DNA of 56,024 nucleotides from a virus. This document shows, piece after piece, positions 46,952 to 56,024 of the stretch. The position numbers and the translations under genes are program-made. The notes below the pieces were generated by a model. It saw only the letters and a program-made list of their open reading frames with translations, did no database searches and was not told the origin of the DNA. Location: positions 1-56,024 of IMG/VR virus record IMGVR_UViG_3300027904_000003; one strand, written 5' to 3'. How positions within the stretch are numbered: the first letter of the stretch is position 1; the number at the start of each line of letters is the position of its first letter.

Positions 46952-47494
46952 CTATAGCTCTTCGCCCAAAACCATAGCAAGATACCCTATATCAGCTTCT
47001 AACTGCTCTAACTTAGTCGGCTCGTAAGGTATATCCTCAACGCTAACATTAATAATTAAATCACCGTAGGCTTCTATTACCGCCATGTAATTGTCGTATT
47101 CCTCTTGATTGTTCGCAATTACAAAGGTTTCAAGAGATGGTAACAACTTAGGTATCATTACAGGTAATATATTTGTTGCAATATACTCTCTGCGGTGCTT
47201 TCTGCGTTCTTCGATAGTCATATTTGGGTTTGAGAACAATGTCAATGTAGTGTCCTCTTCGTTGCCCTCTAATCTATCCCATATATTACAGAATATTTTA
47301 AGCTCGTTATAGTTATCATTTTCATATTCTGCGTTTACTAAGTAGGTATGAGGACTTTTGAGAAGTGCATTTACAATTCCTTGATGTGGGTACGTTTTAT
47401 CATCAAAATTATACAATGGGTCTGTGTTAATCCCATCAGGAAACTCCGAATGAAGTGCAGGATTTTGTTTTGTATAAGTTATTTTTTTTCTCAT
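46952..47494 (-). CDS. hypothetical protein (180 aa), possibly XkdW-like fibre accessory
   Basis: Lies between the fibre-like gene and the XkdX-like gene. C-terminal KLEQLEADIGYLAMVLG. Confidence 0.5.
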   Translation of the reverse strand: MRKKITYTKQNPALHSEFPDGINTDPLYNFDDKTYPHQGIVNALLKSPHTYLVNAEYENDNYNELKIFCNIWDRLEGNEEDTTLTLFSNPNMTIEERRKHRREYIATNILPVMIPKLLPSLETFVIANNQEEYDNYMAVIEAYGDLIINVSVEDIPYEPTKLEQLEADIGYLAMVLGEEL

Positions 47495-47509
47495 TATATT
47501 ACTCCTTTC

Positions 47510-49171
47510 TTAAATTATTAGTCTTATTACCTTTTGTCCCGTGGTATTTATAAATTCTAAATAATTTCTACCAAATTGGTCAACTGACGTATCACATGTT
47601 GTCCGCAACTCAAACATCTCGGCGGCGTTAGCGTTCGATAATATTACACATTTACTTCTTATATTTGTATTATATATTGTGGCGGTATAGTTAAACGCTG
47701 TATTTATATAATACGCATTGTCTGCTGTAGACCCACATATATTAAACATTGCTAGGTACATACTATTTACAATATTACAGTCAAAAATAAACATAATATA
47801 TGAATTTGAAGTATTAATAATATTTGAATTAAGCGCTACATTAATATTACATAAACACGCATTAACAGAAGACTTGCTTAACGTATTAAATATAGACCGT
47901 AATGTACCCGCTTTAATTGTGCTATTGATTACTGTGTTTATAAATACATCTGATACTCTATCCTCAATAATCACGTAATTTGAGCCTGTATATCCACATT
48001 CACTATTAACAATAATACCGCCCACGTTGTTATGAATTGTAGTAGATATAGGGTTTGTTAGTGTAATATCGTGACAACCCTCGCCTATTGTGATTTTTTT
48101 AGCAACTAATACACTGCTTGGGTCATCATAATATTGACCATCATAAAAACACAACACGATATTATGACTACCATCAAATCCGAATGTATTGCTTTTTTCG
48201 GATTGTGTTCTTAAAACACCGTTACCTATTTTTATATTTCCAACAAATGGTGCTAAATCTCCAATTAAGTTTGTAGGATATGGTTTACCGTGTCTATTGT
48301 CCATATTTAGCGTATATCTTTCAGCGTATTGATTATAAAAATTTGGCGGTGCTAAATTACTAACATTAAATGTTTGTTTTATATAAGTCCAAGACGGAAA
48401 AATAAAACTACTGCTATGCCACGCATTAAATGTAAACTTACCTAACCATTGTTCAACACCATTTGCTACGACCATACTAATTGAGTTATCTGCACTATTA
48501 GTAATTCTTTGCCCTACATAAACTGATATACCTGGAACAAACTCATTATTTGGCGCACCGTCCCATTTAAACCTTGCCCATAACATAGTACGCCAGTCTC
48601 CTGTAATATCTATATTACGTTTGGTGTCTATTCTTCGGCGAATAAATCCTCTGCGAGGTATGTCTTGGTCTTCGGGTACATAATCTCCGTAAGTACTCAT
48701 TGCTGTACGTATTTCTATTGTATCATCATCAAAATCATAATAAACAATATCTTCTGGAAATCCCCTGCTTGAACATATCGGCGCAAAAGTAGTGCTTGAC
48801 GTAGCTGTAACAACTAACATTTCATAACGTGTAGCAACTCGCGCGTCATCATCGCTTGTTGGATAATCTCCATCAAAACCTATATGCGGAATATCTGCAA
48901 ACTTAACTTTCCACGTGTAAGGTTGCAAGTATTTTGTTACATAGTTTGTAATACAATACTTTGCGCCGGGGATTAGTTTTCCTGCGTCTTTTAGTGCTTT
49001 GATTTCTTCATAGGTGCGTTCGAAGTAACTCTCTACATCGCCTCCGCCACTTCGTACTGAAAGCTCCTCAAGACTACGCGCCATGGCATCAACCCAAAAA
49101 CCAGTCTCCATAGGTTTAAGCTTTAAATTAGATAGAGTATTTTGTAATCTTTGTCTCCATGTTGTAGCCAT
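47510..49171 (-). CDS. fibre / beta-helix-like structural protein (553 aa)
   Basis: The C-terminal half is made of degenerate N/I/T/S-rich repeats (..NTVINSTIKAG.., ..NINVALNSNIINTSNS..). Confidence 0.5.
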   Translation of the reverse strand: MATTWRQRLQNTLSNLKLKPMETGFWVDAMARSLEELSVRSGGGDVESYFERTYEEIKALKDAGKLIPGAKYCITNYVTKYLQPYTWKVKFADIPHIGFDGDYPTSDDDARVATRYEMLVVTATSSTTFAPICSSRGFPEDIVYYDFDDDTIEIRTAMSTYGDYVPEDQDIPRRGFIRRRIDTKRNIDITGDWRTMLWARFKWDGAPNNEFVPGISVYVGQRITNSADNSISMVVANGVEQWLGKFTFNAWHSSSFIFPSWTYIKQTFNVSNLAPPNFYNQYAERYTLNMDNRHGKPYPTNLIGDLAPFVGNIKIGNGVLRTQSEKSNTFGFDGSHNIVLCFYDGQYYDDPSSVLVAKKITIGEGCHDITLTNPISTTIHNNVGGIIVNSECGYTGSNYVIIEDRVSDVFINTVINSTIKAGTLRSIFNTLSKSSVNACLCNINVALNSNIINTSNSYIMFIFDCNIVNSMYLAMFNICGSTADNAYYINTAFNYTATIYNTNIRSKCVILSNANAAEMFELRTTCDTSVDQFGRNYLEFINTTGQKVIRLII

Positions 49172-49174
49172 ATA

Positions 49175-49432
49175 CTACTCCCCCTTTAGCGCTCGTAATT
49201 CATCAAGTATTTCATCCAATCCATCTGCTGCAATTCTAATGCCTGACAGTTTTAACCCATCAAGAAAATCACCAAGTAAATGGTTTGCTTCATCTGCGCA
49301 TCTCTCTAGCACTCTTTCAGCATAATCTGCAGATATGCCAGAGTTAAGAATAGCACAATAATTAGCCAGTGCATTACTCTCTCCAGCAGCGCCGTCTCCT
49401 CCAAAAAATAAAATAGCTTTACTGTAATCCAT
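49175..49432 (-). CDS. hypothetical protein (85 aa)
   Basis: RBS AAAGGAGGAAAAG. Confidence 0.6.
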   Translation of the reverse strand: MDYSKAILFFGGDGAAGESNALANYCAILNSGISADYAERVLERCADEANHLLGDFLDGLKLSGIRIAADGLDEILDELRALKGE

Positions 49433-49453: not shown

Positions 49454-51796
49454 TTAACTACTAAGTCTTTTCCAATAACTGCCGCCTGATTTTTTTAAGC
49501 TTGTTGGTACCCTTAAAAGTGTAGGACTTCTAAAATAATTAAACGCTCCAGAAAATGCATCTATAGTATCATCTTTGTGTCCATATGGAAACGTATCAGC
49601 CTCATCTAAAAATGCAAGTATATTTCTACATTTCTGAGATACCATTACTTTTCCACCTTGCGACGCGGCAGATGCAGTTCTTGCACGCTCAATCTTGGAA
49701 CCTGTGCTAGTCATTCCTTTAAAGTCATAACCAGCTACAACATTTCTTGCATAGTGGTCTATAGTTATGTCACCTGAACTACCGGGTTCTTTTTCCATCC
49801 TAATAGCTACAGAATAGCCATCGCTTTTTGCTGTTTCTTTTATAATCTTCTCAACATCATGTGGAGTCTTTTGAACTCTCACAATATCTTCAATCCAATA
49901 TATACCTTGATAATTAGCAAGTTTTAGACCAACAGTCCAGTCAGGGTCTCGCTTATCTCTTCGCCTCTTCTTTGAAGGGTCTGTTGAAGCTGTATCCCAA
50001 TAACGTACCCTTTGAGCGTTTCTCGGTACAGTATGCTCTGGCACTATCTCAAACCAATGTCTACTGAACATATCGCCAGATTCTTTAATCTCCCAGTTAC
50101 CATTAAGGAGCTGCTCTCTAGTAGTTGCGTCTAGTTCATTCAAAGACTCTATATAGGCAGCTGCATCAAGATGCGGATTATCATTAAGCCCTGCGCCTAC
50201 AAATATTCTACCTTTATCCGGTCCTTCTATAAAGAACCGTTGATAGTAATACTCGCCATATTCTCCGCCAGGATTAGCTGTGGCTCTAAATCTCAAAGGT
50301 ACATTCAGAGTTACTGGCTTGCGCAATCTACTAAACAAGTACCTGTAGTTGCTTGGGCTTATATGCGTTGTTTCATCCATGCCTATATATTGAAATTCAG
50401 CTCCTTGATATCTGTAACAATCATTATTAGACTCAAGATACCCAAAGTTTAACGTCGCACCAGATGCAAACGTATATTGTTTCTCCTTATCAGACCACTT
50501 AACTTCTTTATCTTCTACAAAAGGCATTAACCACTGTTTACTCATATCAATTAGTGCACCAGGCAAACTTAAATCCGCATATGTCTTACGAAATAATATC
50601 GCTGAGTAGCCTGGAATATCTACAAACTGTAGGGCAGCCATTAGCTGTGCGACAGAATTATGAGTCGGTATTAATGCTCTACCTGCTAAAAATAAGGAAG
50701 ACTTAGAATTTACTTTTATACACTGTACAGGAACGCTTTCTACTTCTCTTATTTCTTTAATATAGTGTAAATATTGTGTACCTCTAAATCCAGTTCGTTT
50801 TTGTAGCTTTAATTTTCTTTCTAACTTAAACATAGGTATTTCTGTAGTCCATTTTAAAGTATATTTGGTGGTAACATAATATTCTTTGCTATTAGTACAT
50901 GTTGCTATGCTACTAGTTAAAGAAACTTTTATTCCTAAAGAACGAACTAATTGTTCTATTTGTTTCATCAATGCTAAATCTGTCATACAAATAGAGCAAT
51001 AACCTTTATCAGAAGATGCATTACCATCAGTATCCATTAACCCCTGTAGTAACTCAAGCCTTTGCGCATAGCTTGCTAATAAATATTTATCAGGAATATG
51101 TTTATTAGCTAGTAATCTATTCTCTCGTAATAAAGGATACAAATTAGGAAGCACCCATACATTCTTAGTTTTAGTATACGCTGCAAATCCATCATTTTTA
51201 ATATATGAATAAATTTCATTATCTTGTGCAGCGCAGTCACCAGAATTCTTACACCCATCGCCTAGCCAAACACCTAATGTATACGGTGGAATAGGTAACT
51301 CATATTTTGTACCCTGTAAAGGCTTAGTAACTTTTATAGCATGTTTAGTTCTGCTGCCCATAGTATCTACTATTTCTTGTGTAGTCATTGTTTTATTACA
51401 GTCTCTATTTTGGTATTGATGCAACGTCCATAAATGGTCTGCGTCTGCATCTAAATACGTATTATTATCAAAATTTATCCTGTATATTTTATGACCATAC
51501 ATTACTTCTGATTTAGCCGTAACTTCACATAGAGCGCCCATTTCATCAAAAAGCTTGTCACCTACTTGTAAATCACCCATAGTAGACCATCCATTACTTG
51601 TAAGTATTTCTGTAGATAACGGTAACGCTTTCCCGCCTCCTGCTGCTCCACCATACAAAATCTCCTTAGTGTTATTCATCAATAAAAATGCAGTCTGCTT
51701 CGGCGTTGGTTTATACGGTATAAACTTAGTTAGCCGTGGCGTCAGCCGTCTCTGTAATTCATTAATGTTAACCTGACTCAAATCTACTTCGCTCAT
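49454..51796 (-). CDS. terL: terminase large subunit precursor (780 aa) interrupted by an intein
   Basis: Walker A is split: YGGAAGGGK / intein / SVAQLMAAL. Downstream are MDETTH (Walker B-like) and a C-terminal nuclease region. Confidence 0.9.
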   Translation of the reverse strand: MSEVDLSQVNINELQRRLTPRLTKFIPYKPTPKQTAFLLMNNTKEILYGGAAGGGKALPLSTEILTSNGWSTMGDLQVGDKLFDEMGALCEVTAKSEVMYGHKIYRINFDNNTYLDADADHLWTLHQYQNRDCNKTMTTQEIVDTMGSRTKHAIKVTKPLQGTKYELPIPPYTLGVWLGDGCKNSGDCAAQDNEIYSYIKNDGFAAYTKTKNVWVLPNLYPLLRENRLLANKHIPDKYLLASYAQRLELLQGLMDTDGNASSDKGYCSICMTDLALMKQIEQLVRSLGIKVSLTSSIATCTNSKEYYVTTKYTLKWTTEIPMFKLERKLKLQKRTGFRGTQYLHYIKEIREVESVPVQCIKVNSKSSLFLAGRALIPTHNSVAQLMAALQFVDIPGYSAILFRKTYADLSLPGALIDMSKQWLMPFVEDKEVKWSDKEKQYTFASGATLNFGYLESNNDCYRYQGAEFQYIGMDETTHISPSNYRYLFSRLRKPVTLNVPLRFRATANPGGEYGEYYYQRFFIEGPDKGRIFVGAGLNDNPHLDAAAYIESLNELDATTREQLLNGNWEIKESGDMFSRHWFEIVPEHTVPRNAQRVRYWDTASTDPSKKRRRDKRDPDWTVGLKLANYQGIYWIEDIVRVQKTPHDVEKIIKETAKSDGYSVAIRMEKEPGSSGDITIDHYARNVVAGYDFKGMTSTGSKIERARTASAASQGGKVMVSQKCRNILAFLDEADTFPYGHKDDTIDAFSGAFNYFRSPTLLRVPTSLKKSGGSYWKRLSS
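50657..51628 (-). mobile_element. 324-aa intein with a LAGLIDADG homing endonuclease domain; Ala1 and WCT signature (class 3)
   Basis: Residues 57-380 of TerL. N-terminus ALPLSTEILT..., block B DADHLW (Trp two residues after His), LAGLIDADG motifs LGVWLGDGC and LLQGLMDTDG, block F VQCIKV (Cys at the F:4 position), block G ALIPTHN followed by Ser+1. Confidence 0.85.
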
Positions 51797-52124: not shown

Positions 52125-52727
52125 TTACTCGCCTCCCTCAGCAGCTGTTATCACAGTCCTCCACCTAAATATCCTATTAAGCCTCTCCTGCGAGAAGGTC
52201 GGTTGCTTCATCATCCACTCCTTGAAGTCCTCAGCCCCCTTGGAGCTATTACATGTTGCACACGCCGGCACTATATTAGCTTGCACAGTCCGCCCACCGT
52301 AACTACTAGGTGTGAGATGGTCCTTTGTCAAGCGTGAGCCACGTCGTGTAGTGCAACCGCAGTAAGCGCACTCGCCTCCGAAAAATATCAAGCACTCCTT
52401 CCACTCCTGATGCGTCAGCTCAGGATGGCCTTCGCCCCTGCGGCGCTGGCCGCCGAGGAATCCGCTAAAGCTCCTCTTGTGTAGGTTCTCACCGCGCCGC
52501 AGGTTATAACACACCTTACAGTCCTTGCGATAAACCACCTCACCATGCTTGTCTGTTCCGTTCTTAGCATAATGCTCTACAAGCTCCTTGTACTCCCCGC
52601 AGAACACACACCGTCGCAGCACCTCTGCCACGCCACCTGTGCGCTCCACCCTGTCCTCCGACTCATACGAACCAATCATCCGCTTCGTTCCTCTCGTACC
52701 CACTCCCGAGCACCTCCTACTCCTCAT
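52125..52727 (-). CDS. HNH endonuclease with an N-terminal zinc ribbon
   Basis: CAYCG...LTKDHLTPSSYGG...NIVPACATCNSSKG. Adjacent to the terminase genes. Confidence 0.85.
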   Translation of the reverse strand: MRSRRCSGVGTRGTKRMIGSYESEDRVERTGGVAEVLRRCVFCGEYKELVEHYAKNGTDKHGEVVYRKDCKVCYNLRRGENLHKRSFSGFLGGQRRRGEGHPELTHQEWKECLIFFGGECAYCGCTTRRGSRLTKDHLTPSSYGGRTVQANIVPACATCNSSKGAEDFKEWMMKQPTFSQERLNRIFRWRTVITAAEGGE

Positions 52728-52732
52728 ATCTA

Positions 52733-53728
52733 CTAGTCTTGTACTGTGTAGCCGCCCTGCTCCTCTACGTAAGTCGTCCCAGCGTCACTGTCAGGGTCTA
52801 GACCTAGCGTCAACTCACGCTCCGTTGTCAAGGTTGTCTCCTTAGCCGTCACTGTGGTGATGGAGCCCAGCGCTCCAGCCTTAAGCAGTATCTGCACCAC
52901 CTCGCCCAAGTCACCCTGCTCAGTAGCTTGCTTCTTCACTGCGCCGCTACCGTCTATATCTACAAGCATCTCATTGCGCGCTGTGGACTGAATCTCCGCG
53001 TCCATATGCGCCTTGCGCTCTAACTCGCTCATCGTCTTCACCAGACCGTTTATCTCGCTCGGCTTCAGCTCCTCTGGGTCTATCATGTCTATAGCTCTGG
53101 TGAGCTTGCTCCGCAGCGCCTTGGCCATATCTACATGTGCCTGGTTCATCGCCAGTATCTCGTCCCTGCGCTGCAGCAGCGTCACATCTTCACAGTGTTT
53201 AATCCAAGCTTGGAGTCTAGCCTGAAAGCTCCAGCGAGCGGCGATGGCTCTCACGGCATCCCGCGTACAGCACAGCTGCTCTGCAGCATCTTGATATGTA
53301 GGCCGCTTGCCTGGGTACGCATCCCGATACGTTATCCAGACTGTATACTCCCACTGGGTCTCACCCGGCTGGCGCTCCCAGAGATTGAGACCCGATGCAG
53401 CGGCCTGAGCTACAATATCTGTATGGTTCCTCGTATATGTGATTCTACAGTTGTAAGCCTTTACACAATCAACGCATAGGTGTGCATCAGTCTTATGCAT
53501 CTCGACGCCGTCGCGCCCGCACCTTCTACAGGTTGACAAATTAACTTCTTCAACCATGTTTTCGCCCTCACTATCAAACAAGTGTGGGCTCCACATCGCT
53601 GCTGCGCCGCTGGGGCTAATATTCCCAGATGTAGTTTCTTCTTCAATGTCCCAGCCTAAAACTGTTTCGCTTGTATCTACAATATCTGTTGGCTGTGTAT
53701 CAGCCGTATAATTGAGTAATACATTCAT
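52733..53728 (-). CDS. terS: terminase small subunit-like DNA-binding protein (331 aa) with a zinc ribbon
   Basis: First gene of the late operon. HTH-like PTYQDAAEQLCCTRDAVRAIAARWSFQARLQAW followed by a coiled coil. Confidence 0.55.
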   Translation of the reverse strand: MNVLLNYTADTQPTDIVDTSETVLGWDIEEETTSGNISPSGAAAMWSPHLFDSEGENMVEEVNLSTCRRCGRDGVEMHKTDAHLCVDCVKAYNCRITYTRNHTDIVAQAAASGLNLWERQPGETQWEYTVWITYRDAYPGKRPTYQDAAEQLCCTRDAVRAIAARWSFQARLQAWIKHCEDVTLLQRRDEILAMNQAHVDMAKALRSKLTRAIDMIDPEELKPSEINGLVKTMSELERKAHMDAEIQSTARNEMLVDIDGSGAVKKQATEQGDLGEVVQILLKAGALGSITTVTAKETTLTTERELTLGLDPDSDAGTTYVEEQGGYTVQD

Positions 53729-54265: not shown

Positions 54266-54454
54266 AAATAAATGGTTGAACTATATTCCTCTCCATAAAT
54301 ATTGCTGCGTGCAAAATTATATATTAAATAAGAAATGTTCCATTTCTTATTTAATATATAATTTTGCTTACCGAATATATTATCGCTTCGCTCAATATAT
54401 TCGTTATAAACGCAGCAATATTTATTCCGAGAAATATAGTTCAACCATTTATTT
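54266..54454. repeat. ~190-nt nested palindrome (22-bp and 14-bp outer stems enclosing a 27-bp-stem hairpin and a 10-bp-stem hairpin)
   Basis: Pairs: 54266-54287 with 54433-54454; 54297-54310 with 54410-54423; 54311-54337 with 54341-54367; 54372-54381 with 54394-54403. Confidence 0.9.
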
Positions 54455-54545
54455 CCAACTATTTCCTCTCCATAAACTTCCATTTAATTCCTACAATTTA
54501 TTTCCAACTATTTCCTCTCCATAAACTTCCATTTAATTCCTACAA
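54448..54545. repeat. 49-bp direct tandem repeat x2
   Basis: 54448-54496 equals 54497-54545 (TTTATTTCCAACTATTTCCTCTCCATAAACTTCCATTTAATTCCTACAA). A partial third copy TTCCTCTCCATAAA lies at 54287-54300. Confidence 0.9.
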
Positions 54546-54701
54546 TTCAATTTCAATTTCAATTTCATACATATCTTCTATACCATCTACCTCTTTATAT
54601 ACACAATCCAAATCCAACGCTAACAATACATCAAGCAATTTTTCCAATTCTTTTCTATCACCTCTAATTCGCACTACCTCATATTTAACCCAACTATACA
54701 T
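54540..54701 (-). CDS. small early protein (53 aa), paralog of 55441..55623; not in the ORF track
   Basis: AGAGGAGGTGGAAAGTAT then ATG. MYSWVKYEVVRIRGD...LLDVLLALDLDCVYKEVDG aligns with MIVHKYEIIGATF...LIKLVLDSLDVSYEVEE. Confidence 0.65.
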   Translation of the reverse strand: MYSWVKYEVVRIRGDRKELEKLLDVLLALDLDCVYKEVDGIEDMYEIEIEIEL

Positions 54702-55687: not shown

Positions 55688-55729
55688 CCCTTTTTATATT
55701 ACAATTATATTACAATTCCTATCTCCATA

Positions 55730-55866
55730 TATTACCAATTATCCAATATTACCAATTATCCAATATTACCAATTATCCAATATTACCAATTATCCAATAT
55801 TACCAATTATCCAATATTACCAATTATCCAATATTACCAATTATCCAATATTACCAATTACCAATT
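55730..55866. repeat. 17-bp tandem repeat (TATTACCAATTATCCAA), 7 full units plus a partial unit
   Basis: Units start at 55730 and recur every 17 nt. Each unit has two CCAAT motifs 8 and 9 nt apart. Only one unit is present in the duplicated block at 54810-54822. Confidence 0.95.
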
Positions 55867-55885: not shown

Positions 55886-56024
55886 GCTGCGCCGCGGCGG
55901 CTAAAAGCTTCAGCTCGCTCAGCTCGCGCCGCGGCGGCTAAAAGCTTCGGTCTGCGCAAAACGCGCCGCGGCGGCTAAAAGCTTCGGTCTGCGCAAAACG
56001 CGCCGCGGCGGCTAAAAGCTTCGG
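55886..56024. repeat. 37-bp GC-rich tandem array at the right end (one variant unit, two canonical units, 21-nt partial unit)
   Basis: 55930-56024 is identical to 1-95. The variant unit carries CAGCTCGCTCAGCTCGC, as in the internal array. Confidence 0.95.

Follow-up and report, generated by a model that had tools for sequence, protein, structure and literature searches.

A probable class 3 intein with a LAGLIDADG endonuclease in the Walker A motif of a phage terminase large subunit

We analysed the virus record IMGVR_UViG_3300027904_000003 of IMG/VR (positions 1 to 56,024; the whole stretch of 56,024 nucleotides (nt) is called the window below) with a focus on its terL gene, which encodes the large subunit of the phage terminase (TerL). 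The TerL precursor contained an insert of 324 amino acids (aa) and, on the strength of alignments and a structural model, this insert was very probably a bifunctional class 3 intein located between the Walker A Lys and Ser of a Terminase_6-type TerL. Its splicing part resembled the class 3 inteins of mycobacterial DnaB helicases, and its central part was a LAGLIDADG homing endonuclease domain.

The insert and its boundaries

The precursor and its parts were located as follows.

49454..51796, minus strand: terL precursor open reading frame (ORF), with the N-extein, the intein and the C-extein in one frame, 780 aa (from the ORF list)
51629..51796, minus strand: coding part of the N-extein, aa 1-56; its last residues are the Walker A segment YGGAAGGGK
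50657..51628, minus strand: intein, 324 aa, TerL aa 57-380, translation ALPLSTEILT...ALIPTHN
49454..50656, minus strand: coding part of the C-extein, aa 381-780 plus the stop codon (from the alignment with intein-less alleles)

A Pfam scan of the 780-aa ORF assigned Terminase_6N to aa 398-583 and Terminase_6C to aa 599-753, while the NCBIfam terminase domain psiM2_ORF9 matched it below the cutoff. The insert started with Ala, ended with Asn and was flanked by LYGGAAGGGK on one side and SVAQLMAAL on the other. It separated the Lys from the Ser within the Walker A motif GxxxxGK[ST], at the point where the ATP-binding loop (P-loop) is most conserved. Lys56 of TerL was residue -1 of the intein, and the DNA of the junction between the N-extein and the intein was TTGTATGGTGGAGCAGCAGGAGGCGGGAAA followed directly by GCG. 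At the other end, residue +1 was the Walker A Ser (Ser381, codon 50654-50656), which was invariant in our alignment of TerL relatives (A1) and was predicted to serve as the second splicing nucleophile.

Relatives were obtained from a search of a collection of 5.8 billion proteins, and those of TerL formed two groups, namely about twenty long proteins (700-884 aa) and many proteins of about 455 aa with flanks that were 75-79% identical. Five intein-less alleles (P0021, P0022, P0024, P0031 and P0049; 455-458 aa, 78-79% identity) read YGGAAGGGKSVAQLM without any gap. Since these alleles joined the Lys straight to the Ser, the boundaries K56/A57 and N380/S381 (a slash marks a splice junction here and below) were unique. 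Removal of the insert left a protein of 456 aa, which was the size of the natural intein-less TerL.

An initial annotation of this DNA had described a 324-aa insert with these flanks in the TerL P-loop, an Ala start without an N-terminal nucleophile and a spliced TerL of 456 aa. All of this agreed with the exact translation, with the five intein-less alleles and with the length after removal. The same annotation had asked for an alignment that might reveal a different boundary with Cys or Ser at position 1. No such boundary was possible because the intein-less alleles read Lys and then Ser and left no freedom for it.

Class 3 residues of the splicing domain

Class 3 inteins are defined by the lack of Cys, Ser or Thr at position 1 and by the presence of Trp at position 12 of block B (B:12), Cys at position 4 of block F (F:4) and Thr at position 5 of block G (G:5), usually with Ser or Thr at +1 (PMC2807308; PMC5222942). 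The window intein had Ala1, Trp at B:12, Cys at F:4, Thr at G:5 followed by His-Asn, and Ser+1. The splicing blocks were located as follows.

51314..51628, minus strand: N-terminal splicing region, intein aa 1-105, blocks A and B (alignment to class 3 DnaB inteins)
51626-51628, minus strand: block A, Ala1 of the intein, which is Ala57 of TerL (codon coordinates)
About 51422-51463, minus strand: block B, motif DADHLW (alignment)
51434-51436, minus strand: His65 (B:10; codon coordinates)
51428-51430, minus strand: Trp67 (B:12), two residues past the block B His (codon coordinates)
50657..50773, minus strand: C-terminal splicing region, intein aa 286-324 (aa 289-324 against MchDnaB1 110-145, 18/36 identical)
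50720-50722, minus strand: block F Cys303 (F:4, VQCIKV), the proposed initiating nucleophile (alignment)
50657-50665, minus strand: block G Thr322-His323-Asn324 (PTHN/S; alignment)

Among the chain sequences of the PDB, the best phmmer matches of the insert were 6rix, 6riy and 6bs8 (E = 4e-19 to 7e-18). They were named 'Replicative DNA helicase', and each matched in two stretches, query 1-68 and 289-324. The first two entries were the class 3 intein MchDnaB1, and the third one was the class 3 intein MsmDnaBi1 of M. smegmatis. Against both inteins, aa 1-68 aligned without gaps with 29 of 68 residues identical, and the splicing blocks together were 44-45% identical over 103-104 aligned residues. 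The catalytic set of MchDnaB1 consists of Cys124, His65, Thr143 and Trp67 (PMC7664689). In the gap-free alignment, His65, Trp67 and Cys303 of the window intein corresponded to His65, Trp67 and Cys124 of MchDnaB1, and Thr322-His323-Asn324 corresponded to its Thr143-His144-Asn145. Moreover, Cys303 was aligned with Cys118 of MsmDnaBi1.

Conservation was evaluated in 141 relatives with a locatable intein and in a 20-sequence alignment (A2) with identities of 35-65%. The combination of Ala1, His, Trp, Cys, Thr-His-Asn and Ser or Thr was present in almost every one of the 141 relatives. Residue 1 was Ala in most of them (Asp, Gly, Ser or Cys in a few), and with few exceptions +1 was Ser or Thr. H65, W67, C303, T322, H323 and N324 were all invariant in A2. 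Thus, the initial proposal of Trp at B:12, Cys at F:4, Thr at G:5 and a terminal THN followed by Ser+1 was upheld both by the ungapped alignment to MchDnaB1 and MsmDnaBi1 and by the invariance of these residues in relatives.

Two other intein classes were considered. Class 1 was rejected since residue 1 was Ala and the boundary was fixed by the intein-less alleles. We also found it most improbable that this Ala1 intein splices by the class 2 (KlbA-like) route. Ala1 is common to KlbA inteins and the N-terminal nucleophile is absent in both classes (PMC5222942). However, class 2 inteins are without the Trp, Cys and Thr (WCT) triplet (PMC2807308), whereas the window intein had all three residues, and the inteins to which it was 44-45% identical have been shown to require their block F Cys (PMC5222942; PMC2807308). 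Furthermore, like almost every class 3 intein (PMC5222942), the window intein had Ser at +1, and in the sole member of class 3 whose +1 residue is Cys, that Cys was no substitute for the block F Cys (PMC5222942).

Several observations weighed against the assignment of the window insert to class 3. Scans of the whole protein with Pfam and NCBIfam gave no match to the Hint or Intein_splicing models and, for the insert, returned endonuclease models only. Since these splicing-domain hidden Markov models (HMMs) were silent, the class call rested on the PDB sequence matches, the alignments and the structural model. In addition, position 48 of the window intein was Ile, and every substitution of Cys48 in MsmDnaBi1 abolished splicing (PMC6195587). 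Asn307, four residues past Cys303, replaced Asp324 of the MP-Be DnaB intein, in which a change of this Asp to Ala reduced splicing (PMC2807308), and Ser311 was found where many relatives have His (His328 in MP-Be DnaB). Positions 48, 307 and 311 were all variable inside the close TerL clade, so the differences seen in the window were probably tolerated.

Predicted fold and the homing endonuclease

The AlphaFold2 model of the intein, which was built on the family alignment, had a mean predicted local distance difference test score (pLDDT) of 93.2 and a predicted template modelling score (pTM) of 0.91. In a Foldseek comparison with the PDB, the whole model matched PI-SceI (query-based score TMq 0.75-0.78), VMA inteins and PI-PfuI. 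Its splicing domain matched the class 3 DnaB inteins 6bs8, 6rix and 6riy with a probability of 1.00 (target-based score TMt 0.77-0.90). The splicing domain was therefore predicted to have the HINT fold. The endonuclease part consisted of the following features.

50774..51313, minus strand: LAGLIDADG homing endonuclease domain, intein aa about 106-285 (Pfam Hom_end and LAGLIDADG_3)
51254-51280, minus strand: LAGLIDADG motif 1, TLGVWLGDG, with Asp124 (sequence)
51101-51103, minus strand: block D Lys176 (alignment to PI-SceI)
51023-51049, minus strand: LAGLIDADG motif 2, LQGLMDTDG, with Asp199/Asp201 (sequence)

Hom_end and LAGLIDADG_3 passed the Pfam cutoffs at aa 245-307 and were the sole matches in the central part of the ORF. 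In phmmer, query residues 176-242 were aligned to residues 301-368 of PI-SceI, so that K176 corresponded to K301 and D201 to D326. The active site of PI-SceI includes Lys301, Asp326 and Asp218, and we take Asp124 of the window intein to be the counterpart of the last of these. G125, K176, D199, D201 and G202 were invariant in A2, and D124 was nearly invariant. The initial annotation had pointed to the motifs LGVWLGDGC and LLQGLMDTDG and to an apparently intact endonuclease. This description stood, with the acidic residues kept and a predicted fold matching that of PI-SceI.

The relative P0013, which carried an intein at the same site, had decayed endonuclease motifs (WLAAG and MDCIG) but kept the WCT residues and THN. 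From its sequence, P0013 appeared to exemplify, within this clade, the stage of an intein's life cycle at which the endonuclease is lost. The window intein was not decayed in this way.

Composition, selection and distribution of the intein

The intein was compositionally distinct from its host gene. Its GC content was 32.5% (20% at third codon positions, GC3), compared with 39.8% in the exteins (GC3 30%) and 39.4% in the whole window. In a comparison with the intein-bearing relative on contig L004, the intein had a nonsynonymous difference per site (pN) of 0.27 and a synonymous difference per site (pS) of 0.69, and the endonuclease part had 0.30 and 0.71, respectively; saturation of the synonymous sites made dN/dS rough and left only the contrast of pN with pS meaningful. 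This contrast showed that both the entire intein and its endonuclease part were under purifying selection.

In a neighbour-joining ordering of the C-exteins, intein-bearing alleles were interspersed among intein-less ones. The C-exteins of the intein-bearing P0007, P0008 and P0010 were 97% identical to that of the intein-less P0031, and those of P0011 and P0025 were 95% identical despite their opposite intein states. Moreover, the intein-less allele on contig L022 and the intein-bearing allele on L015 shared 85-89% nt identity on both sides, but along a 400-nt stretch immediately 5' of the junction the value was only 70-77%. This local drop was possibly a co-conversion tract, since it had the appearance that such a tract would have.

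It was conceivable, although unlikely, that the intein splices but its endonuclease is inactive. In this case, the intein would be a vertically inherited passenger, and its patchy distribution would be due to precise losses and recombination rather than to ongoing homing. Endonuclease activity could not be read from the sequence, the motif loss in P0013 indicated that endonuclease decay does occur in the clade, and the nearest full-length relative of the window intein was only 65% identical, with no very recent transfer visible for the window copy. On the other hand, the two catalytic Asp residues were intact, as was the block D Lys, and all three were invariant or nearly so in the family, and pN was well below pS in the endonuclease part. 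The existence of opposite intein states next to 95-97% identical C-exteins and the identity dip in one such allele pair were also in favour of an active homing endonuclease.

Proposed splicing and homing

With its P-loop interrupted by the intein, the precursor would not bind ATP, a point that has already been argued for P-loop inteins (PMC6195587). The steps below were modelled on characterised homologues.

At the first step, Cys303, positioned by His65, Trp67 and Thr322, would attack the Lys56-Ala57 bond. The product would be the class-specific branched thioester at block F, which bears the N-extein. The N-extein would then pass to the hydroxyl of Ser381 (+1), forming the standard branched ester at block G. 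At the third step, Asn324 would cyclise with the help of His323 and the intein would be released. Finally, an O-to-N acyl shift would produce a normal Lys-Ser bond and restore both GAAGGGKS and an active TerL of 456 aa.

The LAGLIDADG endonuclease, with Asp124, Asp201 and Lys176, would cut an intein-less terL at the site coding for the P-loop during co-infection, and the subsequent repair would copy the intein into the intein-less allele. Both splicing and cleavage of intein-less alleles have been demonstrated for related mycobacteriophage TerL inteins (PMC5050341).

A very different explanation was that the insertion is dead and does not splice, either because terL is a pseudogene in a defective element or because TerL works with the insert in place. 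The silence of the splicing-domain HMMs could be cited for it. Nevertheless, we considered such an insertion to be highly improbable. The reading frame was unbroken over 780 codons, all catalytic residues were intact and the selection was purifying. The gene belonged to a complete-looking 56-kb phage genome with a terminal overlap of 95 nt and a full head and tail module. From the structure of P-loops, nucleotide binding would be incompatible with 36 kDa of extra protein separating the Walker A Lys from the Ser (an argument also made in PMC6195587). In addition, the TerL precursor was found, residue for residue, on three contigs of the collection, with ENA and JGI samples among them; two of these contigs were 55,914 and 32,186 nt long. 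The window precursor belonged to a propagating phage. Since terL is essential, its occurrence in this form on three contigs implied that the intein must splice.

Interrupted P-loops in relatives

The relatives provided a lead that was more surprising than the window intein itself. Nine related protein clusters began at Met17 of the intein. In the DNA of these relatives, a TAG within the Walker A codons terminated the N-extein ORF, and the remainder was in another frame. Inserts of 5 or 8 nt in the Walker A codons of terL were found in five variants on at least nine contigs from different samples, while the window was without such an insert. The variants, with the inserted bases in brackets, were as follows.

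V1, GCA GCT[TAGCT]GGC: L015 about 2933; L018 1064-1085 (minus strand); L021 about 610; intein present
V2, GGT GCT[TAGCT]GCA: L016 about 790; intein present
V3, GGC GGC[TAGGT]GCT: L019 about 955; intein present
V4, GGC GGC[TAGTTGGT]GCC: L020 about 1430; intein present
V5, GGC GGC[TAGGA]GCA: L025 6790-6815, L026 5939-5964 and L027 1795-1820, minus strand; no intein, different TerL lineage

In each insert, the TAG came directly after a codon for Gly or Ala, and 5 or 8 nt downstream there was a codon that was identical or synonymous to it or, in V5, near-cognate. Skipping of the bracketed bases restored YGGAAGGGK exactly. With a take-off codon, a stop codon in the A site and a matching landing codon, the inserts looked like signals for programmed short translational hops. 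Some of them could conceivably be decoded by a -1 frameshift instead of a hop. Such a frameshift would add residues, and in V2 it would break [AG]xxxxGK[ST]. A reassigned stop codon in the relatives starting at Met17 was rejected since the downstream frame differed and further stops followed. A split intein in these relatives was rejected as well because the N-extein ORF ended before the intein and there was no start codon after it. The matches on L017, L024 and L028 were discarded as chance DNA matches.

Similar devices are known from other phages. The bypass cassette of T4 gene 60 moves together with MobA, a homing endonuclease from which it shields the site (bioRxiv 10.1101/2022.08.31.505936), and bypassed inserts of 7 and 10 nt have been described in the terminase of Streptomyces phage Hau3 (PMC10732093). 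Between L015 and L021, the DNA of the N-extein and the insert was nearly identical and the inteins were divergent, so the insert had persisted through recombination. We gave roughly even credence to a scheme in which, in this lineage, the part of terL that codes for Walker A is a hotspot for selfish or recoding devices, the window represents the intein-only state, and the inserts of its relatives are decoded by a programmed hop. By analogy, the inserts could protect the site from the homing endonuclease or throttle the synthesis of TerL.

A second insertion site was observed in P0016 and P0019. These proteins had a related intein with an Asp start six residues upstream (LYGG/DV...THN/SAGGGKS). 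The first Ala of the loop was changed to Ser and served as the +1 residue, and this second homing site was within about 18 bp of the first one.

Phage genome and host

The window encoded a phage module with terS, HNH, terL, portal, major head protein and tape measure genes. Its further features were as follows.

1-125 and 55889-56024: contig ends with an exact 95-nt overlap, consisting of a GC-rich 37-nt tandem repeat, CGCGGCGGCTAAAAGCTTCGGTCTGCGCAAAACGCGC
881-980: further 2.7 copies of the 37-nt repeat
55724-55865 and 54447-54547: nearby repeats of 17 nt (8.4 copies) and 49 nt (2 copies)
52733-53728, minus strand: terS candidate
52125-52727, minus strand: HNH endonuclease gene
46952-49432, minus strand: three ORFs of 85, 553 and 180 aa between terL and the portal gene

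The 95-nt overlap of the ends suggested that the genome was probably complete or circularly permuted, and the repeat regions were possibly an origin, a pac site or a regulatory region. The terS candidate and the HNH gene had a GC content of 55-57% in a genome of 39% GC. An HNH gene was also located upstream of terL in the relatives examined, usually two genes away. Between terL and the portal gene, the 553-aa and 180-aa ORFs had no Pfam match, and the 553-aa ORF had no match in PHROGs either. On L004, L005 and L007 the portal gene directly followed terL; thus, the window contained about 2.6 kb of extra low-GC DNA.

The host was suggested to be of a low-GC Gram-positive type by the initial annotation, but this was not established by our analysis. 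The two closest terL genes in genome bins were located on phage-sized contigs with conflicting assignments, one binned with Christensenellaceae and the other one with Bacteroidales. Exteins of GenBank phages were only distantly related (at most 41% identity in tblastn, psiM2 and Gordonia phages).

Comparison with known inteins

Class 3 inteins in TerL P-loops have been known since 2010, are very common in sequence databases, and the window intein is one more member of this group. Phage TerL proteins and P-loop insertion were noted in the paper that defined the class (Tori et al. 2010, PMC2807308), and the Lys/Thr position of the P-loop has been called the classic intein site in a study that described class 3 TerL inteins of mycobacteriophages (Kelley et al. 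2016, PMC5050341). In PhagesDB, 287 of 784 actinobacteriophage inteins were class 3, mostly in TerL and Cas4 (bioRxiv 10.1101/2025.01.02.630785). Our own filter-free phmmer search against 1.84 billion cluster representatives gave 3,445 matches at E <= 1e-30, which, like the PDB matches, spoke against a chance resemblance. These numbers and the 2010 report contradicted the initial statement that class 3 inteins are rare.

The closest inteins with solved structures and a demonstrated class 3 mechanism were MchDnaB1 (6rix/6riy) and MsmDnaBi1 (6bs8) (PMC7664689; PMC6195587; PMC5222942). As in the window, their insertion site is in a P-loop, between Gly-Lys and Ser/Thr, and they share the His-x-Trp, VPVxC and PTHN motifs and the HINT fold, which was predicted for the window intein. 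Their Ala-Leu-Ala-Leu start was counted as a shared feature as well. Unlike the window intein, both are mini-inteins without an endonuclease, and their host protein is mycobacterial DnaB, a cellular helicase and not a phage terminase. MsmDnaBi1 needs Cys48 and forms a Cys48-Cys118 redox trap (PMC6195587), whereas Ile48 in the window intein makes such a redox switch impossible. MP-Be DnaB of mycobacteriophage Bethlehem, the founding class 3 intein, is phage-borne like the window intein, lacks an N-terminal nucleophile and has the WCT triplet. It also has an obligatory block F Cys and a +1 residue with a hydroxyl group (PMC2807308), and the window intein has the same residue types. MP-Be DnaB differs by Pro1, Thr+1 and its helicase extein, and its Asp324 and His328 are replaced by Asn and Ser in the window.

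With respect to the extein, the inteins TerL1-c, -d and -e of actinobacteriophages were similar in being class 3, in having LAGLIDADG domains in most cases and in their location in the ATPase domain of a phage TerL. Splicing and allele-specific cleavage have been shown for representatives of these groups (PMC5050341). However, they reside in Terminase_1 exteins of phages with Actinobacteria hosts, with sites c and d in a helix and site e in Walker B, whereas the window intein occupies the classic Walker A Lys/Ser site of a Terminase_6 extein. The same arrangement as in the window was found in Escherichia phage MIZ4 (Krischvirus; SRQLGK/ALDVN...HIW...VKCIQV...PTHN/TT), Escherichia phage UE-S1 (Asteriusvirus; RQMGK/ALANN...) and Acinetobacter phage TaPaz (GSGK/AQPLY...). 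All three have a GK/T Walker A site, Ala1, His-x-Trp, Cys at F:4, THN and a LAGLIDADG domain. In a tblastn search of GenBank phages, they were 29-31% identical to the window TerL over the matched stretch, which covered the intein and a part of the C-extein. They differ from the window in their TerL families (T4 gp17 type and jumbo phage) and in their proteobacterial hosts, and their records are labelled only 'terminase large subunit' or 'intein-containing protein'. The best structural match of the whole model, PI-SceI (the VMA1 intein, 1vde/1lws), has the same combination of HINT and LAGLIDADG endonuclease domains, but it is a eukaryotic class 1 intein with Cys1 and Cys+1 and about 15% sequence identity.

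Insertion after Gly-Lys and before Ser/Thr was observed in more than 100 of 123 located relatives whatever the host protein was, and the hosts included several TerL types, DnaB-like helicases and AAA ATPases. About 75 dCTP deaminases (among P0138-P0239) carried a full-length relative of the intein with 33-39% identity and Ala1/WCT residues at LEGK/SSLGRL, which is not a P-loop. This preference for Gly-Lys/Ser or Thr sites bears on how such inteins switch their host genes.

The window intein changes nothing in the knowledge of the splicing mechanism, and its value is mainly in annotation. The 780-aa ORF should be regarded as a TerL precursor with an active form of 456 aa. Gene callers and domain libraries miss the splicing domain of this protein, and Pfam sees the endonuclease only. 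The natural intein-less partner alleles would make assays of splicing and homing straightforward. What is particular to the window is the Terminase_6-type extein in an uncultivated, siphovirus-like phage of 56 kb. The class 3 TerL inteins gain with it a member that is of the Terminase_6 type and not actinobacterial.

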